A stretch of DNA of 64,000 nucleotides from Propionibacteriales bacterium (GTDB lineage: Bacteria > Actinomycetota > Actinomycetes > Propionibacteriales > Nocardioidaceae). The stretch is taken from NCBI GenBank assembly GCA_038252945.1, contig JBBSHN010000004.1, forward strand, positions 357-64,356, written 5' to 3'. Shown in pieces: positions 2,891 to 60,614 of this stretch. Both the position numbers and the translations under genes were made by a program. The first letter of the stretch is position 1. Each line of letters begins with the position of its first letter. Under the pieces are notes generated by a model. The model was not told where the DNA came from and searched no databases. It worked only from the letters and a program-made list of their open reading frames with translations.

Positions 2891-3655
2891 TCAGCGCAGG
2901 GTTCCCACCTTGAGGAAGACGTTGTCGACGTTGCCGTGGAACTGATCGTTGTTCGCCGACGTCCCGACGGCGCGTCCGCCTACAGTGACGGCTGCGGAGT
3001 TCGCGATCGACCCGGTCCGGAGGGTCGCAGTGCCCTGGACTAAGCCGTCGACGAACAATGTGTGTACTTGGCCGACTCGGCGACAGACCAGTTGATGCCA
3101 CTTGCCATCGTCGATGGGCTGCTTCGATCTGAGGTTCACCTGCCCCTTTGTTCCGTTGAAGACGCAGCTCGGCTTGGCTCCGATCAACTGCAGCTTCCAC
3201 TGGTTACTTCTGCGGCCGAAGAGGCCTTTCTGCACAATGTTCGGGTCGCGGGTCGGCTTGGCCCAGCGTGGCCTGACCCGAACGCTCGCGCCGAAGGTGA
3301 ACGGGTGCCGGTGCGGGTTCAAGTGCGCATTGTGGGCGATCTTGATGATCGCTCGGCCACCGTCGCGAGGATATCCAGCAGCCTTTCCGGTAACTCCACG
3401 TCGCACGGTCAGGTGTCCTGTGCCAGAGACCTGCACCACTCCATAGTGACCATGCCCAGTGACGTCAGGGACGCGAGTACCAGGCTTGAGGGACTCACCT
3501 TGGTCGAAGTTGAATCGAAAGCGGGGATGCCACCCCACGCTGACCACGGATGAGTCGTTGAGGGTGTACGGCGCAGCGTCCGCCGCCGCGGCGCCGCTCA
3601 CCAAGACTGTGATAGCGGCTGTGGTCGCCGCCAGCGTTCGTGCACGTCTTGCCAC
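2891..3655 (-). CDS. Secreted LamG / concanavalin-A-like lectin domain protein
   Basis: GTG3655 lies 7 nt after GGAGGA. The signal-like N-terminus is 'MARRARTLAATTAAITVLVSGAAAADA'. The C-terminal pattern 'WHQLVC...HTLFVDG...TVGG...FHGNVDNVFL' is typical of Laminin_G_3-type domains. Confidence 0.75.
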   Translation of the reverse strand: MARRARTLAATTAAITVLVSGAAAADAAPYTLNDSSVVSVGWHPRFRFNFDQGESLKPGTRVPDVTGHGHYGVVQVSGTGHLTVRRGVTGKAAGYPRDGGRAIIKIAHNAHLNPHRHPFTFGASVRVRPRWAKPTRDPNIVQKGLFGRRSNQWKLQLIGAKPSCVFNGTKGQVNLRSKQPIDDGKWHQLVCRRVGQVHTLFVDGLVQGTATLRTGSIANSAAVTVGGRAVGTSANNDQFHGNVDNVFLKVGTLR

Positions 3656-3928
3656 GGTTCATTCCTCCAATGGAGTCGGACGATTCTTCGTCCAATTCGG
3701 GGAAACACGGCGGGTCTACCGACCCAAGTGATCCATATAGGGACGAATCTACACGAAGATAACTAAAAAAGTCGGCCCAGGTTACGTGCCCATTTGTCCG
3801 TGTTAGCCGGCGCTCCCAGCCGCTCACTCGATTAGCCCTATACGGCTACAGGCTGCAACAGTACGGTGTGTGCGGGAAGGCTCGGAGAGCCGTTGTCGTC
3901 GAGACGCCGGGGGAAGACTCCAGAGACT

Positions 3929-4447
3929 ATGGTCGATGCCGTCTCCGCAACCACTCTCTCTGCTCCTCAGGTAGGTTCCTTTCGGCACCCCCGACCACTT
4001 GTCCTACTTCTGGTGTCAAGCAGTGGGGGAGTTCTCCTCGACATCCTGGCGCTGAAGCCGTGGTGGTCCCGGCACGAAACCCGGTGGGCTGTGGTTAAGG
4101 CTTCGGACACCGAGGATGTACTGGCTGACCAGAATGTGGACTGGCTTCCCGAACTATCGGAGGCCAGTCCGCTGGCAATGCTGCCGGCTCTGTTCGCCGC
4201 ATGGAGACTGCTTCGCCGACATCGGCCAGATGTCATTGTGTCTGCAGGTTCAGGTGTCGCCGTACCGCTGTTTGCCATGGCACGGTTGCTCCGGACGCCT
4301 GCTGTCTGGGTGGAGACGTTCAACATCGTCGGGCGTCCGGGAATCAGCTCTCGGATCTGCCAGAGACTGGCGGCCAAGGTGATCGTGCAGCGGCCTGACC
4401 TGATTTCATCGCGTCCGAACGCGGTGCTCGTCGGAGAGCTGTACTGA
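3929..4447 (+). CDS. Alg14/PssD-like glycosyltransferase accessory (membrane) subunit
   Basis: 'LLLVSSSGGVLLD' and 'DVIVSAGSGVAVPLFAMARLL...VWVETFN...IVQ' match the Alg14/PssD pattern. The start is uncertain: the track ORF begins at 3866, and ATG3929 was chosen. The stop overlaps the next start (TGATG). Confidence 0.75.
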   Translation: MVDAVSATTLSAPQVGSFRHPRPLVLLLVSSSGGVLLDILALKPWWSRHETRWAVVKASDTEDVLADQNVDWLPELSEASPLAMLPALFAAWRLLRRHRPDVIVSAGSGVAVPLFAMARLLRTPAVWVETFNIVGRPGISSRICQRLAAKVIVQRPDLISSRPNAVLVGELY

Positions 4448-5733
4448 TGCGGTCGGACAGCCCTTGCCTGAAGGTCTTCGGAACGGTGGGGATGGGGCGC
4501 TGGCCGTTTGATCGGTTCGTGCAAGCCGTGGACGCACTGTCTGATGACCATGACGTGTTCCTGCAGACCGGGACGTCGGCGTACGCGCCGTCATGCCCGC
4601 ATGTCGACTTCATTCCGTACGACGAAGTGCAACGTCGCATCAGCGATGCGGATGTTGTGATAACTCATGCGGGCAACAGCGTCCGACTCGTTCAACGCTC
4701 CGGGAAGGTTCCCATCGCGATTGCCCGGCAGGCCAGCCGAGGAGAGATGAGTAACGACCACCAAGTCGCCTATCTCCGCACGGAGGAACAGGCCGGCCGC
4801 GTCATCGCCGTATGGGATGTATCCCTACTCAAGGGCTATGTCACGCAGTACGCCGAGCGCGCGCGGCAGCTTGGTGACGACCGGGCGCTGGCCGCGCCGA
4901 CTGATCCCAAAGAAGTAGCCGATGTCCTCGACTCAGTCTGCGCCGATCTCCTCGGTGAGAGTGCGGACGAGGACCCCTTCGCGCGAGACCCGCTACGGCG
5001 GTACTCCTTTGCCTGGCGCCACCTGGCGCACGTATCCGGACCGCATCTGGACGTCGGAGTCGGCGCAGGAGATTTCGCTGGTCCCTTCGCGACCGCGACT
5101 GGTCGAGAGGTTCATGCAGTGGACCCGAACGAGGGGTATGTCGATGAGGTACGCCGGCGCTTTCCCCATATTGCCGTGAGGCACTGCTCGCAGGTCAGCC
5201 CGCTGCCCTACGTCAACGGCACCTTCACGTCTGCCAGTTTGCTGGACGTGCTGGAACACTGTCGCAGCGAGCGTGACTTGTTGCGTGAGGTGCATCGCGT
5301 GCTTGCCTCCGAGGGTCGGCTACTGGTGACGGTGCCGCATCGCCATGTCTTCTCGATGCTTGATCCTGACAACGCGAAATATCGATTTCCTAGACTCCAC
5401 AAGTTCGTCTACGTACGACGATTTGGGTCGGCTGCCTACGAACGGCGATTTCAAGATGTGTCGGATGGTTTGTTCGGGGACGTCTCGGTCGAACGCGGCT
5501 GGCACACCAACTACAGGGCTTCCGATCTCCTCGGTCTGCTGCGCGAGACTGGCTTTGAACCCGTGCTAGTGGAGGGAGCCAATCTTTTCTGGAGGTGGCT
5601 ACACATTCCTTATCTCATCGGACCACCCAGACTTCGGTCGGTTCTTGGTGCGGGGATACTCCTGGATGGCAAGCTCTTCCGAAACTCTTCCCTGGCGGCC
5701 AATCTGTTCGTCGTCGCGAGGAGGCTGCCGTGA
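4447..5733 (+). CDS. Alg13/PssE-like glycosyltransferase (GT28 C-terminal domain) fused to a class I SAM methyltransferase
   Basis: N-terminal motifs are 'KVFGTVG...FDRFV...ITHAGNSV...GKVPIAI...SNDHQ' (Alg13/PssE). C-terminal motifs are 'LDVGVGAGDF', 'LLDVLEH' and 'GRLLVTVP' (methyltransferase). The gene is coupled at both ends (TGATG at 4445-4449, GTGA at 5730-5733). Confidence 0.8.
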   Translation: MRSDSPCLKVFGTVGMGRWPFDRFVQAVDALSDDHDVFLQTGTSAYAPSCPHVDFIPYDEVQRRISDADVVITHAGNSVRLVQRSGKVPIAIARQASRGEMSNDHQVAYLRTEEQAGRVIAVWDVSLLKGYVTQYAERARQLGDDRALAAPTDPKEVADVLDSVCADLLGESADEDPFARDPLRRYSFAWRHLAHVSGPHLDVGVGAGDFAGPFATATGREVHAVDPNEGYVDEVRRRFPHIAVRHCSQVSPLPYVNGTFTSASLLDVLEHCRSERDLLREVHRVLASEGRLLVTVPHRHVFSMLDPDNAKYRFPRLHKFVYVRRFGSAAYERRFQDVSDGLFGDVSVERGWHTNYRASDLLGLLRETGFEPVLVEGANLFWRWLHIPYLIGPPRLRSVLGAGILLDGKLFRNSSLAANLFVVARRLP

Positions 5734-6818
5734 ATATTGTGGAGAACGGACGACTGGCGTGGTTCTTCACTCGATTGGCCGTGAAAGAGCACCTCGCTTC
5801 AGGGCTGCATGTCCGGCCACTCGTCGCCGAGATGTTCCTGACTGAGAACTGCAATCTGCGGTGTATCAGCTGCAACTGTTGGCGTGAGAACACGCTCGGC
5901 GAGCTGACTACCCAGGAATGGAAGCACGTCATCGACCAGCTCGTCGAGCTCAAGATACTCAAGGCAAACTTCACCGGCGGCGAGCCGCTGATCCGTCCAG
6001 ACGCTGTCGACATCCTTGCCTATGCACAGAGCAAAGGCATAACGCACCTGCATCTGAACACGAACGGTATCCGGCTTACTCCAGCGAAGACGCGAGACGT
6101 GCTCGACGCCGGAGTCCGCAGTTTCAACATCTCCGTTGACGGACCGAACGGGCTCGTCCACGACCGCATCCGCGGACGACTAGGTGCCTTCGACACGACG
6201 GTCAGCAACCTGAAGGACCTTTTAAGGCTGCGGGAGACCTACGGTCTCAAGGTTCGGATGAACTTCACTGTGATGCGCGCGAACGTCGATCAGCTTCCCG
6301 CGATCGCTGAACTAGCACAGCGCCTCAAAGTTCGCTTGTACCTGAATCTCGCCACGGACAGCACATTCCTGTTTCGAGCCGCCGAGGTGTCAGAGCAGAA
6401 GGTGATCGAGCCTGACGCGCTCGATCAGGCGCTTGTTGGCCTAGAAGAAACTCTTCGTCGCAACTCCCAGTGGTTGCCTAGGTACGCCGACCTCAGCTAC
6501 ATCCGGCGACATTTTTCCGATTTAGTGCAGCGTGACCTGCCGTGTGCGGAGTCTCAGCTCAAGTTGATGATCCACTCACGTGGGGAAGTGGGCGGCTGCT
6601 GGGGGCATGACCCTAAGTCGAACGTTCGGGTCACCAGCCTGCGAGAGATCGTGGACTCACCCGGCTATCGGCAAGAGCACGAACGGCTCTTCAAAAAGGA
6701 CTGCGTAGGCTGCGGAAGCAACTACAGCCTGAACCTGCGGTGGAGGCCTTCGACGTACACCGACGACCTGATGTGGAAGCTCGGTCGCCGCAGCCTTGCG
6801 CACAACGGTCGATCGTGA
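5730..6818 (+). CDS. Radical SAM enzyme with a C-terminal twitch/SPASM-like cysteine motif
   Basis: GTG5730 follows AGGAGG (5719-5724) and overlaps the upstream stop. 'CNLRCISC' is CX3CX2C, and 'FTGGEPLI' is the SAM-binding GGE. The C-terminal 'CAESQLKLMIHSRGEVGGC' is CX12GX4C, followed by 'CVGC' (CX2C). Confidence 0.85.
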   Translation: MNIVENGRLAWFFTRLAVKEHLASGLHVRPLVAEMFLTENCNLRCISCNCWRENTLGELTTQEWKHVIDQLVELKILKANFTGGEPLIRPDAVDILAYAQSKGITHLHLNTNGIRLTPAKTRDVLDAGVRSFNISVDGPNGLVHDRIRGRLGAFDTTVSNLKDLLRLRETYGLKVRMNFTVMRANVDQLPAIAELAQRLKVRLYLNLATDSTFLFRAAEVSEQKVIEPDALDQALVGLEETLRRNSQWLPRYADLSYIRRHFSDLVQRDLPCAESQLKLMIHSRGEVGGCWGHDPKSNVRVTSLREIVDSPGYRQEHERLFKKDCVGCGSNYSLNLRWRPSTYTDDLMWKLGRRSLAHNGRS

Positions 6819-7687
6819 CGACGTATCCCGTGGCCTCGTCGGCGGCCATTGGCCAGTGGGAGGTCCACGGAACCGCAGGACCACTGCGTCCGTCCGCGCC
6901 TCTCTACGACGCTCTGGCGGCCGACTACGAGCAACACTTCGCGGCACCTCACCGTCGCCTCTACGACGAGCTGGCATGGGAGCGGGTCACCGCGTTCCTC
7001 AATGACCCGTCAGTCGACGGGGGACCGGTTGTTGACGCGGGCTGCGGAATCGGGCGCTGGGCTCGACCTCTGGCGCAGCGCGGTCACGTCGTCATCGGGG
7101 TGGAGCACGCGCCGACCATGTTGCACGAGTTGCGGTCTGCGGCACCGATTCCTGGGTTTCGGGTCGTGGAGGGGTCGATCGACACACTGAGCCGAAACAC
7201 AGTGGTGGGGCCGCACAGCTCCGGCGCTCAGTTGGTGCTGGCCATGGGATCGGTCCAGTACACCCAGCGTCCAGCGAGCACCATAAGCAATCTGGCGTCG
7301 TGGCTGCGCCCGGGCGGTGTGCTCGCCGTGCTGGTCGACTCCCTGGTCGGCCTCGTGCTTGAGCTGATTGGTGACGGCCGTGAGGCGGAAGCCGCGAAGA
7401 GGCTCGCCACTGGCCGTGGCGTGTGGCGCATCCGTGGGCGGGAGGCCGACCTACATTTGCTGGACCGCGATCAACTCGTGGGTGCTTTTGCAGGAGCGGG
7501 GCTCGAGGACATCACGGCGTCCGGACTTCTGGTCACTGCCGCCGCACTGGGCAAGGGGCGGCTCCAGGAGGTGCTAGAGGCAGACTTCGACGAGTGTCTC
7601 GCTACCGAACGGCGGTGGGCAGATGACCCGCGGCTGGCTGACGTGGGCAAGCAGCTCCTCGTCACCGGCCGCCTGCCCACCACCTGA
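6815..7687 (+). CDS. Class I SAM-dependent methyltransferase
   Basis: GTG6815 overlaps the upstream stop (GTGA). Motif I is 'VVDAGCGIGRWARPLAQRGHVVIGVE'. 'GGVLAVLV' is the post-II strand. Confidence 0.8.
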   Translation: MTTYPVASSAAIGQWEVHGTAGPLRPSAPLYDALAADYEQHFAAPHRRLYDELAWERVTAFLNDPSVDGGPVVDAGCGIGRWARPLAQRGHVVIGVEHAPTMLHELRSAAPIPGFRVVEGSIDTLSRNTVVGPHSSGAQLVLAMGSVQYTQRPASTISNLASWLRPGGVLAVLVDSLVGLVLELIGDGREAEAAKRLATGRGVWRIRGREADLHLLDRDQLVGAFAGAGLEDITASGLLVTAAALGKGRLQEVLEADFDECLATERRWADDPRLADVGKQLLVTGRLPTT

Positions 7688-7720
7688 GCGCACGAAAGCA
7701 AATCGGGGAGGCATCGGCAC

Positions 7721-9784
7721 ATGACGGACAAGCCGGCGGCATTGGTCCTCGGCGGGGCGGGCTTCGTTGGGTCCGCTCTCTGCCGACGGCTGCGCGAGCA
7801 GGAGCATTCCGTCGTCGCTGTCGACCGACGGGAACCGGCAGCCCCGGATGCATGGCTGCGGTATGACGCTCTCACCGACGAGCCGGCAGATCTTCCGGCG
7901 GGAGAGCTTTTTCTCGTCCTTGGAGCCAGTGACCCTCGCCCCAGACGGCCGTGGACCTTGGTGCTCGAGAACGCGCTCGCCACAGCGCGCCTCCTGCCTG
8001 CTATGAAAGATCGTCGGGTCACGCTCGCATCCTCAGTCGAGGTCTACGGCTCCGCGGCCGCGCCTCTGCGAGAGGAGTCGACGCCCACGCTGCCGTTGTC
8101 GACCGAGGAGCTGGAGAACTGGTGTCTGACTGCCGAGCGGTTGAGCACCTCCCCGTGCCCTCCGTGGAGAGCAGAACGGACGGCAAGGGAGCTCGCTGAC
8201 GCTGATCCGTCCGGTCGATGGGTGTACGCACTGTCTAAATCCGCGCAGGAAATGCTCGTTCGCAAGGCCGTTGCTCCAGATCGCCTCCGCGTGCTCCGGC
8301 CGGCGAACCTGTTCGGTGTGGGTCAAGACCGTGTCGTCAGTCGTCTCGTGCGCCGGGTGCTCAACGGACGCACCGTCACGGTCACAGATTGCCTGCGGAC
8401 GTTTTCGCCCGTCGAGGAGCTGGTTGACGCGCTCCTCCTTGAGGAGACCGGTACCTTCAACGTGGGTTCGAGCGTCGTTTCGCTGGTCGAGCTGGCGAAG
8501 GAGATCGTCGAGCTTGTGGGGCATGACGTTCCGATCGAGGTGCTGCCGGCTCCGGACAACGACACGTGCGGCGTCGTCGACTCGAGCCTGCTCGCGAGCA
8601 GGGGATTCAGAGCCCGCTCGTTCGACGCCGCCCTCAAGGAGCTGGTGAACCAGCTGCGATTCGAGCACGTGCCAATCTTCGAGCCCCCTCTACCCGTGGT
8701 CATTCCACCGCGACCCGAGCAGCCGTCTCTACTCGCGGACCGACAGTTGGGGTGTCAATGGAGCGGCCGAGTCAAGCACGGGAATTATTGGACGGGCCGG
8801 CTGACCGATGAGCTCACGGAACGTCTTCGCCTACCGCCGGACAAGCGGCTCATTGTCACCAACACCGGGACTTCTGCCCTTCGGCTCCTGCTCTGGTCAA
8901 CTGTTGGGCCGGCCAAGCCCCGGCAGGCGGTGGCGCTGCCGGCGTACACGTTTCCGGCGACCGCTGAGGTCGCGTTGCAGCTCGGGTACAACCTGCGCTT
9001 CTGCGACGTGGACGCTGACTTCTGGACCATGACGGCGGAGAGCCTGCATGAGGCGTTGGACGAGCGGGTCCAAGCCGTGATATCGGTAGACACCTTCGGC
9101 AATCCGGTGCACTACAACGAGCTGCTTGGGGTGTGTCGCGCGGCCGCCATACCGCTGCTTGCGGATTCCGCACCTTCGCTGGGCAGTTGGTATCAGGGCG
9201 TTCCGGTGGGAGGCCAGGCGGACGGACACGCGTTCTCCATGAGCTTTGCCAAGGCTCTGACGGCAGGAGGCAGCGGAGGCGCAGTCGTTGTGCCCGCGGC
9301 AGCAAGCTTGAGCGGCCCCGAGAACCTGCTGCGCTCCTCCCTGATGCCCGAGATCAACGCGGCGGCCGCCTTGGACCTCCTTCCGGTGCTGGACGATCTG
9401 GTGTCGCGACGGCAAGAGATCGCCGACACGTACCAGGAGATGTGCGGGCGCTATCCCGACGTGCAGCACCAACGGATCCGGTCCGACGCCCGCTCAAGCT
9501 GGGTGCACTGGGTGATGTGTCTCGGACCGCGGTATGGCAGGGAGTCGGTAGTGGCCGGCTTGCGAAGACTGGGAGTGGAGACCAAGCCGTACTACTGGCC
9601 AGCGCTGCACGAGGCGGAGTGGCAGCACGGCTGGGAGCCCGGAAGCGCCTCCCGAGAGGCTCTGCCCGTCAGTTCCCGACTTCACCGGTCCGCACTTGCG
9701 CTCCCCATGTCGTCAGAGATGACGCTGTCCGACGCAGAGCGCGTCTCCTCGGCTGTTGACTCGGTGTTTGCCGAGTTCCACTAG
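7721..9784 (+). CDS. NAD-dependent sugar epimerase/dehydratase (SDR) fused to a DegT/DnrJ/EryC1/StrS-family PLP aminotransferase
   Basis: GGGGAGG lies 9 nt before ATG7721. N-terminal motifs are the Rossmann 'VLGGAGFVGSAL', 'SSVEVYG' and the catalytic 'YALSK'. C-terminal motifs are 'TNTGTSALRL', 'LPAYTFPAT', 'DVDADFWTM', 'VDTFGNP' and the Lys motif 'SMSFAKALTAG'. Confidence 0.85.
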   Translation: MTDKPAALVLGGAGFVGSALCRRLREQEHSVVAVDRREPAAPDAWLRYDALTDEPADLPAGELFLVLGASDPRPRRPWTLVLENALATARLLPAMKDRRVTLASSVEVYGSAAAPLREESTPTLPLSTEELENWCLTAERLSTSPCPPWRAERTARELADADPSGRWVYALSKSAQEMLVRKAVAPDRLRVLRPANLFGVGQDRVVSRLVRRVLNGRTVTVTDCLRTFSPVEELVDALLLEETGTFNVGSSVVSLVELAKEIVELVGHDVPIEVLPAPDNDTCGVVDSSLLASRGFRARSFDAALKELVNQLRFEHVPIFEPPLPVVIPPRPEQPSLLADRQLGCQWSGRVKHGNYWTGRLTDELTERLRLPPDKRLIVTNTGTSALRLLLWSTVGPAKPRQAVALPAYTFPATAEVALQLGYNLRFCDVDADFWTMTAESLHEALDERVQAVISVDTFGNPVHYNELLGVCRAAAIPLLADSAPSLGSWYQGVPVGGQADGHAFSMSFAKALTAGGSGGAVVVPAAASLSGPENLLRSSLMPEINAAAALDLLPVLDDLVSRRQEIADTYQEMCGRYPDVQHQRIRSDARSSWVHWVMCLGPRYGRESVVAGLRRLGVETKPYYWPALHEAEWQHGWEPGSASREALPVSSRLHRSALALPMSSEMTLSDAERVSSAVDSVFAEFH

Positions 9785-9992
9785 ACAGCACCCAGGGCGG
9801 AGATCAGGCTGCTAGACGTAGTGGAGAAAAGTCCGGATTAATGGGTATCTTCCGGCCAGTTTTGGTCCTAGTGTTGATCGTGCTTGGCCCGCCCCCTGCC
9901 GCCAGCGTATTGAGCAGTTGATGCTCTTCGTGCCTCGCCAGAGGAGGTCTAAAGCGACCGACGACTGAACCTAGCCAGCAGGGAGATCAACG

Positions 9993-11102
9993 ATGCGTCG
10001 AGCCGTCAAAGCATTGGTGCCCGCGACAGCTCTCCTGCTTGTCGGAGCCACTGCGGCGATGGCCGCGGTGTCAGATACGCCGCGTGCCACTGCGTCAGTG
10101 AACGGCATTGTTCGCGACGTGCTGGTGCTAGGCAACACCGTTTACGTCGCCGGGCTTTTCGACTCTGTGCGCGGCCCGTCAGGATCGACGTACATCAGGC
10201 ACAACGTGGCGGCATTCAACGCGTCAACCGGCGCCGTGAAGAAGTGGGATCCCAACGCTGACGACCAGGTGTATGCACTGGCTGCGCTCGACTCCGGTCA
10301 GATCGCTCTTGGGGGAGTCTTCAACACGGTCGGCTCAGCGAGGCACAGGCACCTGGCGGTCGTGAGCTCCGCGAGCGGCACCATAAAAACATCGTTCACG
10401 GCCTCCGCGAATGGCAAGGTCCGAGCCCTGGCGGTCGGCACGAACGGGTGGCTCTACGTGGGCGGCACGTTCACCTCCATCAGCGGACAGCCGAGCAGCG
10501 GACTCGCCGCCTTCGACGGGAACACGTTCACGTTGGAGCCTTGGGTTCCGCAGGCCGATGGCGGTGCGGTGCTGACGCTTGACGCCGCCAAGGGTTTGAT
10601 CTTTGTAGGCGGCAAATTCACCTCCCTTGGCATCGAGGCAGGATCCGGCTACCTGGACGGTTTGGACCCGAAAAGTGGGGCGATCAGGTGGAATCCGTCG
10701 ACGAGCATTCCGGTGCATGACGTGGCGGTTGGCAAGACATCCGTGTACGTCGCCGCTGACGGCAAGGGTGGGCACCTGTACGCCTACAACCTCAGCGGTG
10801 CTGGCCGCAAGTGGACGGTGACCACGGACGGTGGAGTCCAGGCTGTCGCGGTGATCGGCACCGACGTCTACTTCGGTGGTCACTTCGACAACGTCGGGAG
10901 TACGCACCTGCGTAAGCTGGCAGTGGCAACCACCACCGGAACTCTGCAATCCTCGTGGGCGCCGCAGGCGAACTCGAATCAAGGCGTATTCGTGTTGGCG
11001 AAAGGGTCGAACTCCAGCGGCTCATTCCTCGTCGCCGGAGGAGCCTTCACCACCTTCGACGGCGGAATCATCAAGCAAGCGGGCTACGCCGAGTTCCAGT
11101 AG
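9993..11102 (+). CDS. Secreted beta-propeller-like repeat protein (function unknown)
   Basis: GGGAG lies 7 nt before ATG9993. The signal peptide is 'ALVPATALLLVGATAAMAAV'. Blades recur about every 45 aa ('VYVAGLFDSV', 'IALGGVFNTV', 'LYVGGTFTSI', 'IFVGGKFTSL', 'VYFGGHFDNV', 'LVAGGAFTTF'). Confidence 0.7.
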   Translation: MRRAVKALVPATALLLVGATAAMAAVSDTPRATASVNGIVRDVLVLGNTVYVAGLFDSVRGPSGSTYIRHNVAAFNASTGAVKKWDPNADDQVYALAALDSGQIALGGVFNTVGSARHRHLAVVSSASGTIKTSFTASANGKVRALAVGTNGWLYVGGTFTSISGQPSSGLAAFDGNTFTLEPWVPQADGGAVLTLDAAKGLIFVGGKFTSLGIEAGSGYLDGLDPKSGAIRWNPSTSIPVHDVAVGKTSVYVAADGKGGHLYAYNLSGAGRKWTVTTDGGVQAVAVIGTDVYFGGHFDNVGSTHLRKLAVATTTGTLQSSWAPQANSNQGVFVLAKGSNSSGSFLVAGGAFTTFDGGIIKQAGYAEFQ

Positions 11103-11114
11103 CGCCTCGCGGCG

Positions 11115-12299
<1,185 letters not shown>

Positions 12300-12314
12300 T
12301 GCGCACTCCTTGGC

Positions 12315-13517
12315 TCACACCGTCGAGTATGGCGACGAGACCACTCTGCCCGTCACTTCACCGAGCATTACCCGGGTGCCGCGCGGACCCGGCGCCCAGC
12401 CGCGAAGAGTCACGACGTCGCCGTCCTCCAGGAACCCGCGGGCGGTCCCGTCGTCGAGCTGCAGGGGGTCGGTGCCGTTCCACGTCCGCTCGAGCAGGCT
12501 GCCGAACGTCTCCGGTGCCTCCCCGCTGACCGTGCCGGAGGCGAACAGGTCGCCGACGCGGAGGCCGGCGCCGTTGACCGTCAGGTGGGCCAGCATCTGC
12601 GCCGGTGACCAATACATGTCGCGGTACTCGGGCTTGGCGACCACGGTGCCGTTGAGCACCACCTCCAGGTGTAGGTCGAGCCCGCACGCCGCCTCACCGC
12701 CGGACAGATAGGGGAGCGGCTCAGGTTGCTGCATCGGCAGCGGAACCTGAGCGGCTTCGAGCGCCTCAAGCGGCACCACCCAGGCCGAGATGCTGGTGGC
12801 GAATGACTTGCCCAGGAACGGGCCGAGCGGCACGTACTCCCACGCCTGGATGTCGCGGGCGCTCCAGTCGTTGAGCAGCACGACGCCGAAGATGTAGTTC
12901 CAGGCCTCTGTGATGGGCACCGGCTGCCCGAGCTGGCTGGACCGGCCAACGACGAAGCCAACTTCGCACTCGATGTCGAGCCGCGTGCTCGGACCGAATG
13001 GCGGTCGCCGGTTGGGTTGTGGGCTTCGCTGACCTTGGGGCCGGATGACGTCGGTGCCGCTGACGATCACGGTGCCGGCGCGGCCGTGGTAGCCGATCGG
13101 AAGGTGCTTCCAGTTCGGAGGAAGCCCAGGGGAGTCGGGGCGGAAGATCTCACCCACGTTCGAGGCGTGCGACTTGCTGGCATAGAAGTCGACGTAGTCG
13201 GCAACCTCCAGCGGCAAACGCATTGTCACATCGTCCAGCGGCACCACGACGACGGCGTCGGGATCGGGGCAGCGGGCCACGTCCGCGACCCGTGCGCGTA
13301 CGTCGCGCCAGGCAGCCGGCCCCAGTGCCATGAACGCGTTCAACGATGGTGAGGCGAAGACCTCGGCATTTGGCCACTGCGATGCTGCCGCGGTCGCGGC
13401 TAGGTCCAACACCGAGTCGCCAAGGCGTACACCGATGCGCGGCGGCTCGCCCGGGCGCTCGAACACGCCGTATGGCAGCGTCCCAAGGCCGAACGGCGAG
13501 TCGCTGCTGTCGGTCAT
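12315..13517 (-). CDS. fahA: Fumarylacetoacetase
   Basis: The N-terminal 'FGLGTLPYGVF' and the 400-aa length are typical of fumarylacetoacetase. The gene is adjacent to homogentisate dioxygenase. Its start overlaps the upstream stop (ATGA at 13514-13517). Confidence 0.85.
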   Translation of the reverse strand: MTDSSDSPFGLGTLPYGVFERPGEPPRIGVRLGDSVLDLAATAAASQWPNAEVFASPSLNAFMALGPAAWRDVRARVADVARCPDPDAVVVVPLDDVTMRLPLEVADYVDFYASKSHASNVGEIFRPDSPGLPPNWKHLPIGYHGRAGTVIVSGTDVIRPQGQRSPQPNRRPPFGPSTRLDIECEVGFVVGRSSQLGQPVPITEAWNYIFGVVLLNDWSARDIQAWEYVPLGPFLGKSFATSISAWVVPLEALEAAQVPLPMQQPEPLPYLSGGEAACGLDLHLEVVLNGTVVAKPEYRDMYWSPAQMLAHLTVNGAGLRVGDLFASGTVSGEAPETFGSLLERTWNGTDPLQLDDGTARGFLEDGDVVTLRGWAPGPRGTRVMLGEVTGRVVSSPYSTV

Positions 13518-14326
13518 GACGCCTCCATCTCCAGCAGTCCCAGCCGCACGAGCTCGTGGACCGGGTCCTCCACGCCGCAGCAGCCGAACGACACGAACTC
13601 TTCGCGGACGACCGCAGCCTCAGCGGTTGACCACGAGTCGACCTCGTTGGTGACTGCGTCCTCGTTGCGAACGGTCAGCACATCGGCGACCGTCCCTGCA
13701 TCAGCTCCCTGTCGAGCCAGCAACGAGCCGTGCATCAGGTTGAGGAAGCCGTGGTGCTCGAAGCCGGTGGACGGATCTGTGCACCGGACGGCCGAGTGGA
13801 GGCCGGCCGTGAACTTCAGCGGTGCCCGAACGGTCGCCGAGATCACCAACACCTCGGCCGCCGTGTCCACGCTGGGAAAGGCGTCCGCAATGGTGCCTCC
13901 GGTGCGGAACTTGCCGATGACGTCTCGTCCCTTTGCGCGCTGTTCGGCCACGGCTGCGAGCAGCTCGGACCGGTCTTGACCCGGCATCTCGCACGCCAGC
14001 CGGCGCGACGCCGCAACGACAGGGAGCGGGGTGCCGGTCACGGGCACCTCGAATCCGACCAGGTCCAGTGCGGCGGGCAGGTGCTGTGGCTCCCTCGACG
14101 AGCCCACCACAGTGACAGCCAGCGGAGGTGACCCCGCCGCCGCATGAGCGTCGAGGAACTCCTCCCACCGCTGGGCCGAGACCAGGAGCGGCCCGACGAG
14201 GCCCGCGTATGGCGACCGTTTGTGCTGGAGATGTTCGGTGATTGCGACAGACGCCGGCGCGTTGCCCGGAGGGAACATGGCCGCGTCATCGAGCAGGCCA
14301 CCGAACAGCCCAGGCGTCGTTGACAC
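13514..14326 (-). CDS. Hypothetical protein inside the homogentisate operon (unknown family)
   Basis: Same frame as track ORF 13514..14464. The upstream part would collide with the divergent hmgA start, so GTG14326 (or ATG14278) is chosen; the start is uncertain. Motifs 'GKFRTGG' and 'LKFTAGLHSAVR' are noted but not assigned. Confidence 0.6.
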   Translation of the reverse strand: MSTTPGLFGGLLDDAAMFPPGNAPASVAITEHLQHKRSPYAGLVGPLLVSAQRWEEFLDAHAAAGSPPLAVTVVGSSREPQHLPAALDLVGFEVPVTGTPLPVVAASRRLACEMPGQDRSELLAAVAEQRAKGRDVIGKFRTGGTIADAFPSVDTAAEVLVISATVRAPLKFTAGLHSAVRCTDPSTGFEHHGFLNLMHGSLLARQGADAGTVADVLTVRNEDAVTNEVDSWSTAEAAVVREEFVSFGCCGVEDPVHELVRLGLLEMEAS

Positions 14327-14430
14327 GCCAGCACCGTACTGTAATCGTGAAGAGCGATTTCCTGCCTCCGAAGCTGGCCAACGGCCTCGGCCCGCTAACG
14401 GTTCGATAAGCGCCCGAAGGAGGGGAACCA

Positions 14431-15678
14431 GTGGCCTACTACCGGTCGTGCGGATCTGTGCCACCCAAGCGGCACACCCAGCACCGCCCAGACGGTGGAG
14501 CGCTCGCCTACGAGGAGCTCATGGGAGAGGAGGGCTTCTTCTCCGACTCCTCACTGCTCTACCACCACAATCTGCCGTCTCGAATTATCGACGCGCAGTG
14601 CTGGGTTCCCGGCAATCTGGAGACCACGCCGAATCACCCACTGTTGCCGCGACACCTGCAACTGCATCGGCTCTTCAAGGACGAAGCGGGCGCAGTCGCT
14701 GACGTGGACGTCGTCACGGGACGCCGACTCGTCTTGGGTAACCCCGACGTCCGTATCTCCTACGTCGTCGCGGGCTCTCCCTCTCCGCTGTACCGCAACG
14801 GGCTCGGCGACGAGTGCCTGTACGTCGAGCGGGGAGCGGCGCGGGTCGAGACCATCTTCGGCGCGTTCGAGGTCGGCCAAGGCGATTACGTCATCATGCC
14901 GCGGGCTACCACGCATCGGTGGATTCCGCGAGCCGGCGACGAGCTACTTCGAGTTTACTGCATCGAGGCGAACTCGCATCTCACTCCGCCTAGGCGGTAC
15001 CTCTCCAAATTTGGGCAGCTGCTCGAGCACTCGCCGTACTCTGAGCGGGATCTCCGTGGTCCGGAAGGGCCGCTGCTCGCCGGAGATCTCGGCGAGGATC
15101 AGGACGCGGAGACCGAGGTCTACGTCAAGCATCGTGGCAGCGGACCGAGCGGTGCGGTGGGCACGATCTTCACGTACCCCTTCCACCCGTTCGACGTAGT
15201 GGGCTGGGATGGCTGCCTGTACCCGTACGTCTTCAACGTCGCGGACTTTGAGCCGATCACCGGCCGGGTGCACCAGCCACCGCCGGTGCACCAGGTGTTC
15301 GAGGCTCACAACTTCGTAGTGTGCAACTTCGTGCCTCGCAAGGTGGACTACCATCCGCTGGCCATTCCGGTGCCGTACTACCACTCGAACGTCGACAGCG
15401 ACGAGGTGATGTTCTACGTCGACGGTGACTACGAGGCGCGCAGAGGCTCCGGCATCGCGAAGGGTTCCATCACGCTGCATCCTGGTGGCCACGCGCACGG
15501 TCCGCAGACCGGAGCCTACGAGCGGTCCATCGGCACTGAGTTCTTCGATGAGCTTGCCGTCATGGTCGACACGTTCCGGCCGCTCGAGCTGGGCGAGGCA
15601 GGCGTCACAGCAGACGACGGCGCCTACGCGTGGTCGTGGGCTCGGGGCGCCGATTCAGGGACCGACGGCACCGGCTGA
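14431..15678 (+). CDS. hmgA: Homogentisate 1,2-dioxygenase (actinobacterial type)
   Basis: AAGGAGG lies 7 nt before GTG14431. The N-terminal 'YYRSCGSVPPKRHTQHRPDGG...YEELMGEEGFFSDSSLLYH' and the His-rich 'YYHSNVDSDEVMFY...HPGGHAHGP' match my recollection of actinobacterial HmgA. Confidence 0.8.
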   Translation: MAYYRSCGSVPPKRHTQHRPDGGALAYEELMGEEGFFSDSSLLYHHNLPSRIIDAQCWVPGNLETTPNHPLLPRHLQLHRLFKDEAGAVADVDVVTGRRLVLGNPDVRISYVVAGSPSPLYRNGLGDECLYVERGAARVETIFGAFEVGQGDYVIMPRATTHRWIPRAGDELLRVYCIEANSHLTPPRRYLSKFGQLLEHSPYSERDLRGPEGPLLAGDLGEDQDAETEVYVKHRGSGPSGAVGTIFTYPFHPFDVVGWDGCLYPYVFNVADFEPITGRVHQPPPVHQVFEAHNFVVCNFVPRKVDYHPLAIPVPYYHSNVDSDEVMFYVDGDYEARRGSGIAKGSITLHPGGHAHGPQTGAYERSIGTEFFDELAVMVDTFRPLELGEAGVTADDGAYAWSWARGADSGTDGTG

Positions 15679-42807: not shown

Positions 42808-43583
42808 TGCTGCCGCACCTGCTGAGGACGAAGCGGGGAGGTCACGAGAGCATGAACCAGATAGCTGGCGACGTCACCTGGGGTCGTGCCCCGGGCGAAG
42901 ATGCGGTCGACTCCGAGCTCGGCTGTCTGGCGCTCCTCGAAGCGTGGGCCTCCCACGATGAGGAGCGGCAGGGTCTCGGCCGGATAGGCCTCACGGAACG
43001 CCGCCGACATCTCCTTGGTGTTGAGCAGGTGCGCGTCGCGCTGTGTCACGACTTGCGAGACCAGTACGGCGTCCGCTCGCTCCTCCTGTGCTCGGGCCAC
43101 TAGCTCGGGTACGGACACCTGCGCTCCGAGGTTGACCACCTTGATCTCCCGGTAGTACTCCAGCCCCTTCTCCCCGGCGAACCCCTTGATGCTGAGGATG
43201 GCGTCGATGCCTACCGTGTGAGCGTCGGTGCCGATGCATCCTCCGACAACCACCAGGCGGCGGTGCAGGCCGCGCTTGATAGCGGCGTTGACCTCCTTAG
43301 CCGACAGGTGCAGGTAGTCGCGCTCCACCACTTCGACCGCGCGAAGATCGACGAGGTGGTGCACGCGGCCGTAGACGATGAAGAACGTGAAGTCAGGCCC
43401 AACCGCCTTGGCGTGCGCAACGAGTACAGGGTCCAGGCCCATCTTCGAACCCAGCTGAGCGGCGGCACCCTCGGCGCGCTTGTCGTGCGGGATGGGGAGG
43501 GTGAAGGACAGTTGCACCATGCCGTCACCGGTGGTGTCGCCGTACGGCCGGAGAATCGGCCCGGAAGCCGAGGTGGTGGTCAT
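42804..43583 (-). CDS. kamE: Lysine 5,6-aminomutase beta subunit (cobalamin/PLP-binding)
   Basis: The N-terminal 'ILRPYGDTTGDGMVQLSFTLP' and 'VVGGCIGTDAHTVG' (DxHxxG B12 motif) are present. ATGA overlap with kamD. Confidence 0.85.
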   Translation of the reverse strand: MTTTSASGPILRPYGDTTGDGMVQLSFTLPIPHDKRAEGAAAQLGSKMGLDPVLVAHAKAVGPDFTFFIVYGRVHHLVDLRAVEVVERDYLHLSAKEVNAAIKRGLHRRLVVVGGCIGTDAHTVGIDAILSIKGFAGEKGLEYYREIKVVNLGAQVSVPELVARAQEERADAVLVSQVVTQRDAHLLNTKEMSAAFREAYPAETLPLLIVGGPRFEERQTAELGVDRIFARGTTPGDVASYLVHALVTSPLRPQQVRQQ

Positions 43584-59605: not shown

Positions 59606-59617
59606 TGTCGAGCTCCC

Positions 59618-60559: not shown

Positions 60560-60614
60560 AGACAACCCCTCGGCGAAATGGAATGCGGGAACCGGAGAGC
60601 GGCCCGGCCCATTG

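Follow-up and report, generated by a model that had tools for sequence, protein, structure and literature searches.

A Widespread Bacterial Gene Cassette Combining a Split Glycosyltransferase, a Radical SAM Enzyme, Two Methyltransferases and an SDR-Aminotransferase Fusion: A Probable Sugar-Unit Module

Introduction

The glycosyltransferases PssDE of Rhizobium and WelK transfer glucuronic acid (GlcA), and DesII, a radical SAM (rSAM) enzyme without an auxiliary cluster, acts on a 4-amino-4,6-dideoxy sugar. SPASM/twitch rSAM enzymes are frequently peptide maturases; to our knowledge, the characterised twitch enzymes that edit sugars or cyclitols, namely BtrN, SpeY, NeoN and AprD4, and also BlsE and DesII, all come from antibiotic pathways. 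Aminotransferases of the DegT family act, as far as we know, on nucleotide sugars, free cyclitols and nucleosides, and not on lipid-linked glycans. BlsE takes as its substrate a glucuronide sugar, cytosylglucuronic acid (PMC3715490). Here, we describe an operon of five plus-strand genes, read directly from the sequence and its list of open reading frames (ORFs) at positions 3929-9784 of a 64-kb window (the whole stretch of DNA analysed), in which proteins resembling several of these enzymes are encoded side by side.

Organization of the Operon

The five ORFs are given in Table 1. Their products of 362, 290 and 687 aa were matched by independent gene calls on a Logan contig, and those of 172 and 428 aa were recovered by exact-sequence look-up. 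The junctions, re-read in the sequence, bear out the overlaps given in the preliminary description: genes 1 and 2 overlap in TGATG (4445-4449), genes 2 and 3 in GTGA (5730-5733), with a Shine-Dalgarno-like GAGGAGG on the 5' side at 5718-5724, and genes 3 and 4 in GTGA (6815-6818), and a 33-nt gap (7688-7720) with GGGGAGG ahead of the ATG at 7721 lies between genes 4 and 5. Four-base start/stop overlaps are frequent in high-GC actinobacterial operons, and those seen here are compatible with co-translation and, taken alone, unremarkable. Upstream, the spacer separates the operon from a minus-strand LamG-domain gene (2891-3655), and it contains neither a sigma-70 consensus nor an Rfam element; in the downstream spacer no terminator-like hairpin was scored, and the only ORF there encodes a hydrophobic peptide of 26 aa (9841-9921). 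Both spacers lie below the GC content of the whole window (65.3%), so that they are A/T-rich, as the upstream one was earlier called, only in a relative sense, such values being ordinary for intergenic DNA. The operon is surrounded by housekeeping genes, and no phosphoglycosyltransferase, flippase, polymerase, Ugd (UDP-glucose dehydrogenase) or UXS gene was found in the 64-kb window. Since no transmembrane segment is predicted in any of the five proteins, the chemistry would be cytoplasmic. Pfam and NCBIfam HMM scans of the five proteins agree with all the domain assignments first made by eye, and the motifs on which these relied (CNLRCISC, CX12GX4C...CX2C, GGAGFVGS, YALSK and SMSFAK) are every one present in the translations.

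Table 1. Features of the operon and its bracketing spacers.
Feature	Position	Strand	Basis or composition
Upstream spacer, divergent, presumed promoter region	3656..3928		273 nt, 56.4% GC
Five ORFs	3929-4447, 4447-5733, 5730-6818, 6815-7687, 7721-9784	all +	ORF list
PssD/Alg14-like N-half subunit of split MurG-type (GT-B) glycosyltransferase, 172 aa	3929..4447	+	Pfam, NCBIfam
PssE/Alg13-like C-half, nucleotide-sugar-binding, residues 1-165 of 428-aa fusion	4447..4941	+	NCBIfam
MT1, class I SAM methyltransferase domain fused to PssE	4942..5733	+	Pfam, Foldseek
Twitch-like radical SAM enzyme of 362 aa with a single auxiliary [4Fe-4S] site, signature gene of the cassette	5730..6818	+	Pfam, motifs
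MT2, class I SAM methyltransferase, 290 aa	6815..7687	+	Pfam
Extended-SDR NDP-sugar oxidoreductase domain, residues 1-320 of 687-aa fusion, presumed 4-keto-forming step	7721..8680	+	Pfam
DegT/DnrJ/EryC1/StrS PLP aminotransferase domain, residues 321-687	8681..9784	+	Pfam
Downstream spacer, operon end	9785..9992		208 nt, 57.7% GC

Distribution and Genomic Context in Relatives

Far from being peculiar to the source genome, the gene set is a cassette of wide distribution. A search for the same neighbourhood, as the preliminary description had proposed, finds it in about 69 other species; synteny of the seven domains on this scale is far beyond chance. The rSAM family is tight (52-75% identity) and occurs in about 69 genomes at species level, drawn from the Actinomycetota, Chloroflexota and Alphaproteobacteria; the best 120 of 696 rSAM homologues share 62-75% identity. 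Across 70 loci, PssD, PssE, rSAM and MT2 are each present in 69, MT1 in 62, DegT in 58 and SDR in 53, and MT2 adjoins the rSAM gene wherever it is present (69 of the 70). The species that carry the cassette, some 70 in three phyla, are soil bacteria, in which it frequently lies within a polysaccharide locus. The two fusions, thought unusual at first, prove common in the family: SDR and DegT are fused in 54 of 55 loci, PssE and MT1 in 36 (separate in about 26), and at least 271 and 208 protein clusters contain the SDR-DegT and PssE-MT fusions, respectively. In addition, a triple PssE-MT1-rSAM fusion is found in two loci (L055 and L067), and one protein (P0377) is an rSAM-MT fusion. No characterised counterpart was found, in keeping with the first impression that the set matched no characterised cluster, and the database names of its proteins are all generic; the cassette appears to be uncharacterised by anyone.

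Most loci, about 55 of 69, lack any gene for export or priming within 10 kb. A phosphoglycosyltransferase gene directly adjoins SDR-DegT in 12 species loci, which suggests that this fusion supplies the priming nucleotide sugar, and about 13 loci have UXS-like (UDP-glucuronate decarboxylase-like) genes nearby and five have Ugd. In one locus (L087), the cassette stands amid Wzz, a MOP-type transporter, UDP-glucose dehydrogenase and a UXS-like SDR, together with a second, canonical Alg14/GT28_C pair and a large phosphoglycosyltransferase. In another (L090), a distant paralogous module (GT4-MT-DegT-SDR-rSAM-MT-GT4...Wzx) lies within a Wzx-type locus; its glycosyltransferase being a GT4, the tailoring set appears independent of PssDE. 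The acceptor had been described as open, which is correct for this window, but the phosphoglycosyltransferase, Wzz and flippase neighbours in relatives point to a polyprenyl-linked one.

The Radical SAM Enzyme

The rSAM protein matches Pfam Radical_SAM at 1.6e-22, without a SPASM match in the Pfam scan. Its invariant residues comprise C41/C45/C48 (CX3CX2C), GGEP and C272-X12-G-X4-C290...C325-X2-C328, the last a four-Cys auxiliary pattern which we take to be that of a BtrN-type twitch domain. In Foldseek, the AF2 model (pTM 0.83) best matches BlsE (7vob, 2e-15), with DesII (7e-12) likewise among its foremost matches, a likeness at the level of the fold only (21% and 18% identity) which barely exceeds that to the peptide-modifying SkfB and PqqE; unlike DesII, the cassette enzyme has one auxiliary cluster. 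Among 57 long rSAM relatives, 18 are fused to a GT2 domain and another to the flippase domain Polysacc_synt_3, the GT2 glycosyltransferase fusions belonging to relatives more distant from the cassette enzyme.

It is highly improbable that the rSAM enzyme is a maturase of a ribosomal peptide (RiPP), with the glycosyltransferase and methyltransferases decorating the product. SkfB, PqqE, SuiB and CteB are indeed among its structural or sequence matches, and MT1 and MT2 match a daptide methyltransferase model weakly; however, neither the operon nor its flanks contain a small ORF resembling a precursor, relatives leave no room for one, and a RiPP recognition element, a protease and a transporter are all lacking. 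Its partners are the nucleotide-sugar enzymes SDR, DegT and PssDE, and the genomic context in relatives is that of glycan assembly.

The SDR-DegT Fusion and the Split Glycosyltransferase

The SDR domain (Pfam Epimerase, 3.6e-24) carries GxxGxxG, S104-S105-V-E107 and Y169xxxK173, with its catalytic S/E/Y/K residues intact and invariant, and a conserved insertion of about 40 aa. Against the PDB, its profile matches MoeE5 (2.9e-18), GalE-1 (3e-16) and UXS1 (1e-15) ahead of RmlB (~1e-4). It is thus nearer to UDP-GlcA 4-epimerase, UXS and GalE-like enzymes than to RmlB-type dehydratases, and has S-V-E in place of T-D-E, so that its initial naming as a dehydratase is not established. The DegT domain (Pfam DegT_DnrJ_EryC1, 1.1e-46, 160 bits) matches the NCBIfam models PseC (8.6e-37), LegC family (2e-28) and DesI (4.3e-24, full length), and all 52 sequences compared keep its PLP lysine, K511 in SMSFAK.

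The PssD-like protein matches Pfam Alg14 at 5.4e-09 (36.7 bits, cut-off 27) and the NCBIfam models PssD (2.6e-20), WelK N-half (1.3e-13) and murG (4.7e-08), and its family profile matches the N-half of MurG at 5e-4. The PssE domain matches PssE (1.5e-15) and the WelK C-half (2.1e-11), the scores of both halves lying under the NCBIfam equivalog cut-offs; Pfam Glyco_tran_28_C is matched at just 0.0094, also under its cut-off. PssE homologues carry the JGI name "ALG13 subunit", 24 orthologues all share the motifs THAGN and NDHQ, and the AF2 model of the domain is a Rossmann-like beta-alpha-beta fold with pLDDT >90. Whereas canonical Alg14, PssD and MurG have a His in the G-loop, that of the cassette PssD is SSGGV, with Val invariant in the family, which may mean that the acceptor is something other than a classical lipid-diphosphate-sugar.

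The missing diphosphate-binding His would also suit a diffusible small molecule instead of an envelope glycan, such as a secondary metabolite of the aminoglycoside, aminocyclitol or nucleoside type, or a compatible solute. The pathway would begin with oxidation by the SDR and transamination, continue with a BtrN/SpeY-like oxidation by the rSAM enzyme and N-methylation, and end with glycosylation of a soluble aglycone. The antibiotic origin of the known sugar- and cyclitol-editing twitch enzymes, the BtrN-type Cys pattern, PDB matches of DegT that include 2-deoxy-scyllo-inosose and scyllo-inositol aminotransferases, and the lack of membrane proteins in the operon and of export or priming genes in the window all fit such a product. 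We nevertheless consider it quite doubtful: the set has stayed compact in all three phyla and is accompanied by no genes for resistance, regulation, transport or a scaffold, its informative neighbours are phosphoglycosyltransferase, Wzz, Wzx/MOP, Ugd and UXS, and rSAM relatives are fused to GT2 and a polysaccharide flippase domain.

The Methyltransferases and a Glucuronic Acid Route

MT1 and MT2 both match Pfam Methyltransf_11, _25 and _23 at 1e-10 to 1e-12 (Methyltransf_11 at 2.9e-12 for MT1, Methyltransf_23 at 6.7e-12 for MT2). MT1, whose conserved, family-specific lid (LDPDNAK...HTNY) contains invariant residues, finds its best Foldseek matches in TM1389 (2avn) and the sugar O-methyltransferases AtmM and RebM; MT2, for its part, most resembles, though weakly, the carboxyl methyltransferases CmoM, Tam, BioC and BchM. 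Such weak matches cannot reveal the substrate classes of the two enzymes.

The carboxyl methyltransferases among the matches of MT2 would nevertheless agree with GlcA chemistry after transfer, in which PssD/PssE moves GlcA and the rSAM enzyme edits the bound glucuronide like BlsE, by decarboxylation or dehydration to a 4-keto sugar, SDR-DegT and the methyltransferases (one of them a carboxyl methyltransferase) then finishing the lipid-linked residue. We hold this route to be possible, if unlikely. The best named matches of both glycosyltransferase halves are the glucuronosyltransferases PssD/PssE and WelK, the SDR profile comes closest to MoeE5 and UXS1, which use UDP-GlcA, Ugd and UXS-like genes border the cassette in relatives, editing may be physically tied to transfer, to judge from the PssE-MT1(-rSAM) fusions, and the top structural match BlsE uses cytosylglucuronic acid (PMC3715490). 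All these similarities are weak and under family cut-offs, however, and SDR-DegT is linked most tightly to the phosphoglycosyltransferase gene, not to the glycosyltransferase. The aminotransferase would have to act on a lipid-linked glycan, contrary to known DegT enzymes, and the paralogous tailoring set of L090 is accompanied by a GT4 and so does not depend on PssDE.

Proposed Function

The original proposal, in general terms, that these genes form a compact route by which a sugar is aminated, edited by radical chemistry, methylated and passed to an acceptor is supported by the strict co-occurrence of its parts in about 69 genomes, by the polysaccharide-locus context in relatives and by the match of the rSAM model to the sugar editors BlsE and DesII. 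While the sequences themselves show which domains and catalytic motifs are present, how the operon is built, and how its parts co-occur, fuse and are placed in relatives, we infer the identities of the substrates, the order of the steps, the type of rSAM reaction and the nature of the acceptor as follows. The SDR domain would oxidise a UDP- or NDP-sugar at C4, with 4,6-dehydration or decarboxylation, and the fused DegT domain would convert the 4-keto product to a 4-amino sugar by transamination. The twitch-type rSAM enzyme may then abstract a ring hydrogen from the amino sugar, free or glycosidically bound, and edit it in the manner of BlsE, DesII or BtrN, whether by deamination or dehydration, by decarboxylation, by oxidation or by epimerisation, and the two class I methyltransferases would add N- and/or O-methyl (or ester) groups. 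Finally, PssD and PssE would transfer a sugar to a membrane-bound, polyprenyl-linked acceptor, presumably primed by a phosphoglycosyltransferase encoded elsewhere in the genome, outside the window. The cassette is thus probably a widespread cytoplasmic "sugar-unit" module for the assembly of envelope or extracellular glycans, which would deliver a methylated, radical-edited amino sugar to a lipid-linked glycan.

Distribution and Domain Fusions of the Cassette

The five-gene operon is one copy of a widespread and unstudied cassette, and not a one-off. Its genes encode, in order, a PssD/Alg14-like protein, a PssE/Alg13-like domain fused to a class I SAM methyltransferase (PssE-MT1), a radical SAM enzyme, a second class I methyltransferase (MT2), and an SDR fused to a DegT-family aminotransferase (SDR-DegT). 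A search for the same neighbourhood in other genomes, which the preliminary description had named as a check, recovered the gene set at about 69 species loci when one genome per GTDB species was scanned, with orthologous radical SAM genes at 52–70% identity. The carriers are Micromonospora, Actinoplanes, Actinoallomurus, Streptosporangiaceae, Nocardioides, Kribbella, Kineosporia, Frankiaceae, Mycobacteriales MAGs, Acidimicrobiales, Microthrixaceae and Solirubrobacterales, as well as one Chloroflexota MAG. Alphaproteobacterial carriers are Roseiarcus fermentans, a Xanthobacteraceae MAG and a Sphingobium MAG.

Co-occurrence was scored by tblastn, with seven domains of the window as queries against 70 loci including the window itself. 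PssD, PssE, the radical SAM enzyme and MT2 were each present in 69 loci, MT1 in 62, DegT in 58 and SDR in 53, and the complete seven-domain set was found in 46 of the 70. The Acidimicrobiales loci scored as lacking the SDR actually possess an SDR-DegT fusion, more divergent and about 700 aa long. Gene order and strand are variable, in that PssD-PssE-MT1 may precede or follow the radical SAM gene and SDR-DegT may lie on either strand, and it is therefore the set, rather than a single transcript, that selection maintains. Clustering of neighbouring genes was based on non-overlapping gene calls, and its outcome is still imperfect.

The domain fusions, which had at first been regarded as unusual, are the rule in this family. 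SDR and DegT are fused in 54 of the 55 loci in which both halves were seen, and the fusion is represented by at least 271 protein clusters of 670–740 aa. PssE and MT1 are fused in 36 loci, against about 26 where they are separate (e.g., Micromonospora), with at least 208 protein clusters of the fused form, which the JGI pipeline labels 'SAM-dependent methyltransferase/UDP-GlcNAc transferase subunit ALG13'. In addition, a single frame of about 850–870 aa spans PssE, MT1 and the radical SAM domain in a Microthrixaceae MAG (locus L055) and an Acidimicrobiales MAG (L067), both being candidate triple fusions as judged from their reading frames, and one relative of the radical SAM protein (P0377) is a radical SAM-methyltransferase fusion. 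Taken together, the PssE-MT1, radical SAM and SDR-DegT fusions argue that transfer, methylation and radical chemistry target one molecule.

Organization of the Operon and Its Surroundings

The five ORFs and their junctions, re-read directly in the sequence, agree with the preliminary description, and the products are identical in independent gene calls. Four-base overlaps are frequent in high-GC operons, and those seen here would fit co-translation. Besides the good Shine-Dalgarno-like element ahead of the radical SAM start, a second one, GGGGAGG, stands ahead of the last gene. The spacers flanking the operon, of 273 and 208 nt, contain 56–58% GC, compared with 65% for the window. Third-position GC of the first three genes (3929–6818) is 0.65, 0.69 and 0.73 versus 0.74–0.85 in the neighbours, and the radical SAM gene has 58.5% GC; this may be a mild hint of horizontal acquisition, too weak to call. 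No Rfam element matched in the window or in the upstream spacer, and a search for promoter and terminator consensus sequences yielded nothing informative. The strongly hydrophobic 26-aa ORF (MGIFRPVLVLVLIVLGPPPAASVLSS) inside the downstream spacer is probably spurious.

Coordinates of the operon, its junctions and neighbours in the window, and of selected loci in relatives
Feature	Location (nt)	Strand	Remarks
LamG/concanavalin-like lectin-fold protein	2891–3655	-	predicted secreted; upstream of operon
PssD/Alg14-like protein	3929–4447	+	gene 1
Junction TGATG	4445–4449		genes 1 and 2
PssE-MT1 fusion	4447–5733	+	gene 2, 428 aa
Shine-Dalgarno-like GAGGAGG	5718–5724		ahead of radical SAM start
Junction GTGA	5730–5733		genes 2 and 3
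Radical SAM enzyme	5730–6818	+	gene 3, 362 aa
Junction GTGA	6815–6818		genes 3 and 4
MT2	6815–7687	+	gene 4, 290 aa
SDR-DegT fusion	7721–9784	+	gene 5, 687 aa; preceded by 33-nt gap
26-aa ORF	9841–9921	+	in downstream spacer
Beta-propeller protein	9993–11102	+	predicted secreted; downstream of operon; Pfam matches weak only
Tyrosine/homogentisate-degradation-like group	11115–15678		directly downstream; thiolase, fumarylacetoacetase, cupin/HgmA_C homogentisate dioxygenase-like
HTH_3/XRE-EPSP-synthase/MurA-fold ORF	36424–37959	+	511 aa
Lysine 5,6-aminomutase alpha subunit	43580–46728	-	amidohydrolase adjoining
Pup ligase PafA	57681–61976	-	with PafB/PafC-like WYL regulators
Candidate PssE-MT1-radical SAM fusion	L055:8435–11047		Microthrixaceae MAG
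Wzx-type locus	L090:5148–16622		metagenomic, 44% GC
Second radical SAM/SPASM protein	L042:7037–8302		adjoins cassette
Second radical SAM/SPASM protein	L047:7122–8315		adjoins cassette
Second radical SAM/SPASM protein	L065:14035–15243		adjoins cassette

Within the window the operon stands isolated among housekeeping genes. Two predicted secreted proteins with signal-like N-termini flank it, neither of which is conserved beside the cassette in other genomes, and the homogentisate-type group beyond them appears unrelated to the operon. Farther off lie GcvP, Lnt, lysine 5,6-aminomutase and PafA/PafBC. PafA, PafBC, Lnt and DUF881 mark the window as part of an actinobacterial chromosome. A separate observation concerns an ORF in which an N-terminal HTH_3/XRE domain (7e-15) is joined to a full EPSP-synthase/MurA-fold domain (7e-45), an unusual fusion of regulator and enzyme.

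Association with Polysaccharide Loci

No phosphoglycosyltransferase, UDP-glucose dehydrogenase (Ugd), UDP-glucuronate decarboxylase (UXS) or flippase is encoded anywhere in the 64-kb window. Among the relatives, 12 species loci, with each of the three phyla represented, have a Bac_transf phosphoglycosyltransferase directly beside SDR-DegT or MT2. Near about 13 loci there is a UXS-like SDR whose motif reads T-S-E; 5 loci have a UDP-glucose 6-dehydrogenase close by, and about 8 a sulfotransferase-like gene. At locus L087, where the radical SAM enzyme is 70% identical, the cassette lies within a classical polysaccharide locus. In addition to Wzz, Ugd and a UXS-like gene, this locus contains a transporter of the MOP family, a phosphoglycosyltransferase of 525 aa and a second Alg14/GT28_C pair, which is canonical. 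A more distant Wzx-type locus, L090, has the order GT4-MT-DegT-SDR-rSAM-MT-GT4-SDR-SDR-MT-Wzx (rSAM, radical SAM), and its 374-aa radical SAM relative is 31% identical along the full length. L090 thus carries the functional equivalent of the cassette, unfused and with another type of glycosyltransferase.

A full-library HMM search reduced the core radical SAM family to one 50%-identity representative and surrounded it with a shell of relatives at 140–250 bits. In this shell are large multidomain proteins (P0382, P0401, P0408, P0410 and P0435, together with 14 of the 47 members of alignment A6). Of 57 scanned relatives with a length of at least 600 aa, 18 contain GT2, about five have a methyltransferase and a single one has a Polysacc_synt_3 flippase domain; the others are tandem radical SAM proteins. 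By their domain content, the GT2- and flippase-fused relatives look like a class of radical SAM enzymes that is linked to glycans and so far unstudied. Among the new evidence on function, this link of the radical SAM clade to glycan assembly is the strongest.

The Radical SAM Enzyme

The enzyme of the window matches PF04055 with 80.9 bits against a cut-off of 29.5 (1.6e-22), which places it in the radical SAM superfamily. Invariant in 18 diverse members are C41, C45 and C48 (CX3CX2C), C50 and G83-G84-E85-P86, as well as the C-terminal cysteines of C272-X12-G285-X4-C290 and C325-X2-C328. The C-terminal region has the features of a twitch domain, namely CX9-15GX4C, a beta-hairpin (model strands 278–281 and 286–289) and two further Cys. 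It is not a SPASM domain, having four conserved C-terminal Cys only, without the seven-Cys pattern (CX2CX5CX3C) and without a match to PF13186. One fully Cys-ligated auxiliary site, of twitch type and not the two-cluster SPASM type, is thus what sequence and model predict.

By sequence, the solved structures that come nearest are PqqE, BlsE, SkfB and MoaA, all of them matched over no more than the core, and the BlsE match (1.8e-12) is weaker than that to PqqE. When the AlphaFold2 model (pLDDT 79, pTM 0.83) was searched with Foldseek, BlsE ranked best (E 2e-15, TM 0.63/0.69, 21% identity), followed by SkfB, PqqE and DesII (7e-12, 18%). Neither search reaches similarity to BlsE or DesII at the level of orthology. 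Antibiotic pathways (desosamine, butirosin, blasticidin, spectinomycin) are almost the only setting in which radical SAM enzymes are known to act on sugars. The cassette enzyme shares with BlsE (blasticidin S), DesII (desosamine) and BtrN (butirosin) a core with CX3CX2C and GGE, and its gene is accompanied by that of a DegT-family aminotransferase, as in BlsE/BlsH, DesI/DesII and BtrN/BtrS; its own auxiliary site has the four twitch-like cysteines (CX12GX4C...CX2C). Unlike BlsE and DesII, to which it is only 18–21% identical, it belongs to a separate, very tightly conserved family: of its 696 homologues (E ≤ 1e-10), the 120 best are full-length, 62–75% identical across phyla, and all generically named.

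These likenesses bring in a small-molecule product as an alternative. We consider it improbable, because the cassette enzyme, unlike BlsE, DesII and BtrN, occurs in a set of glycosyltransferase and methyltransferase genes tied to polysaccharide loci and not in an antibiotic cluster, and has relatives fused to GT2 or Wzx-type domains. A RiPP maturase, with PqqE and SkfB among the nearest solved relatives, was considered as well and rejected as very improbable, since no precursor-like ORF was found. Anti-phage defence was also rejected, PADLOC having given only a generic match of the radical SAM core to pVip and a methyltransferase match to mad2. As a side observation, a second, distinct radical SAM/SPASM protein of about 400–420 aa adjoins the cassette in Roseiarcus fermentans and two actinobacterial MAGs (L042, L047 and L065).

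The Split Glycosyltransferase and the Methyltransferases

All domain assignments of the preliminary description were upheld by Pfam and NCBIfam profiles, at family level. No NCBIfam equivalog cut-off is reached by any of the five proteins, and the calls are therefore to be read as family-level and not orthologue-level. The first gene product matches Pfam Alg14 (36.7 against a cut-off of 27) and NCBIfam PssD (2.6e-20), and the N-terminus of the second matches PssE (1.5e-15) and the C-half of WelK, with the class I methyltransferase following. WelK matches both halves, and the PssD family profile matches the N-half of MurG at 5e-4, which supports membership in the split glycosyltransferases. The scores for PssD (73.3 versus 110 bits), PssE (57.4 versus 120) and Pfam Glyco_tran_28_C (16.4 versus 22) lie below the respective cut-offs.

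As in PssD/PssE of Rhizobium leguminosarum, Cps14F/Cps14G of S. pneumoniae type 14, eukaryotic Alg14/Alg13, WelK and MurG, the enzyme is made of two halves, an acceptor/membrane-side N-half of about 150–170 aa and a nucleotide-sugar-binding C-half, and the donor-side motifs THAG and DHQ of PssE are invariant. It nevertheless departs from the canon. Unlike the PssD/PssE type, it has in most cases a methyltransferase joined to its C-half, at times with the radical SAM enzyme in addition, and PssD lacks the N-terminal membrane anchor, no transmembrane segment being predicted in any of the five proteins. The canonical G-loop is GSGGH, with GGH in Alg14, PssD and MurG, whereas the cassette PssD reads SSGGV, and all 24 orthologues compared have the Val; the acceptor-side chemistry may thus differ from that of the classical enzymes. 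In L087 the canonical pair, with GSSGGH in its G-loop, coexists with the cassette pair at only 35–40% identity. The PssE profile had no PDB match, and the Foldseek search with the PssE-MT1 model was swamped by the methyltransferase domain and hence gave no independent structural confirmation of the Alg13-like fold.

Both MT1 and MT2 score above the cut-offs of Methyltransf_11, _23 and _25, as class I methyltransferases do, with LDVGVGAG and VVDAGCGIG, respectively, as motif I. The lid of MT1 is highly conserved and rich in invariant Asp, His, Arg and Tyr. In Foldseek the MT1 model is similar to TM1389 and to two sugar O-methyltransferases, AtmM and RebM. The best, weak, matches of MT2 are carboxyl methyltransferases. 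The methyl acceptor is fixed by neither set of matches. Glycosyltransferase-methyltransferase fusions in glycan assembly are known from WsaE of the Geobacillus S-layer glycan and from WbdD-type terminators. Compared by architecture, the cassette shares with them a SAM methyltransferase physically joined to a glycosyltransferase, a coupling which implies that the newly transferred sugar is methylated. It differs in having a split GT28-like rather than a GT2/GT4 enzyme and another domain order, with no coiled-coil or kinase module.

The SDR-Aminotransferase Fusion

The SDR half is an extended SDR by its match to PF01370 (Epimerase; 85.9 bits against a cut-off of 20.9, 3.6e-24), and GxxGxxG (G11/G14/G17), S104-S105-V-E107 and Y169xxxK173 are conserved, with a conserved insertion of about 40 residues between Ser and Tyr. 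The nearest profiles are MoeE5, a UDP-GlcA 4-epimerase (2.9e-18), GalE-1 and human UXS1 (1e-15). With such neighbours, and with BlsE acting on cytosylglucuronic acid (PMC3715490), a glucuronic-acid-centred, post-transfer version of the chemistry is the main rival on the details, which we regard as rather unlikely beside a nucleotide sugar that is ketonized and aminated before transfer. The early reading as an SDR dehydratase/epimerase holds as far as the extended-SDR family is concerned; a dehydratase of the RmlB type is not supported, since the motif is S-V-E and not the T-D-E expected before VYG, and RmlB entries score only about 1e-4, far behind MoeE5 and UXS1. UXS, ArnA and GDP-mannose dehydratase use Glu at the corresponding SDR position, and the conserved Glu here makes a dehydratase or decarboxylase that forms a 4-keto product more likely than a plain epimerase.

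The DegT half matches PF01041 with 160.1 bits against a cut-off of 19.8 (1.1e-46), and its PLP lysine, K511, is invariant in 52 sequences, where PMP dehydratases have His. Among named families it matches the C4 aminotransferases PseC, LegC, DesI and ArnB best, at scores below the equivalog cut-offs (PseC 126.9 versus 423.5, DesI 85.3 versus 650, ArnB 66.7 versus 631). An extended SDR with Ser/Glu/Tyr/Lys followed by a Lys-containing DegT is also the arrangement of PglF/PglE, PseB/PseC, RmlB/DesI and ArnA(DH)/ArnB, and a small PglC-like phosphoglycosyltransferase adjoins SDR-DegT in relatives. Unlike those pairs, the cassette holds both enzymes in one polypeptide of about 690 aa, its SDR has S-V-E instead of T-D-E or T-S-E and the insertion of about 40 aa, and methyltransferases take the place of an N-acetyltransferase. 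We know of no characterised SDR-DegT fusion of this kind, nor of a characterised counterpart to the GT-MT(-rSAM) fusions.

A Possible Pathway and Its Significance

On balance we favour, with some confidence, a cassette that makes, radical-edits and methylates a sugar and transfers it to a polyprenyl-linked acceptor. SDR-DegT would convert a nucleotide sugar to a 4-keto intermediate and then to a 4-amino sugar. The radical SAM enzyme may then abstract a ring hydrogen and perform an edit of the BlsE, DesII or BtrN type; the substrate of DesII is a 4-amino-4,6-dideoxy sugar. MT1 and MT2 would methylate, and PssD/PssE would move a sugar onto a polyprenyl-linked acceptor primed, as the context suggests, by a phosphoglycosyltransferase of the kind adjacent in the 12 relatives, here presumably encoded outside the window. 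By analogy, this logic resembles Pgl-type initiation combined with radical sugar editing of the desosamine or blasticidin type, all parts being of known superfamilies. Literature searches on PssD/PssE or Alg14 with radical SAM, on twitch radical SAM enzymes and lipid-linked glycans, on radical SAM polysaccharide clusters and on GT2-radical SAM fusions found nothing relevant, and one on the solved structures that DegT matches best was uninformative.

A broader proposal is put forward only tentatively, as a possibility: the radical SAM family, together with its GT2- and flippase-fused relatives, may form a class that edits lipid-linked or envelope-glycan sugars in non-antibiotic metabolism. The cassette would then give rise to an undescribed methylated amino/deoxy sugar unit common to Actinomycetota, Chloroflexota and Alphaproteobacteria, with the editing physically coupled to a split MurG-like transferase.

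A very strongly conserved radical SAM enzyme is firmly linked to a glycosyltransferase, a pair of methyltransferases and an oxidoreductase-aminotransferase, and the set recurs in polysaccharide loci. In terms of annotation, some 70 groups of labels such as 'radical SAM protein / methyltransferase domain-containing protein' become one recognisable cassette. If an envelope-glycan sugar is edited, soil bacteria would have a sugar or sugar modification that is new, the reach of radical SAM enzymology would widen to glycan assembly, and enzymes testable in vitro would be on offer, namely the fused SDR-aminotransferase and the GT-MT(-rSAM) fusion. The cassette is a concrete and testable way into the radical SAM chemistry of envelope-glycan biosynthesis.
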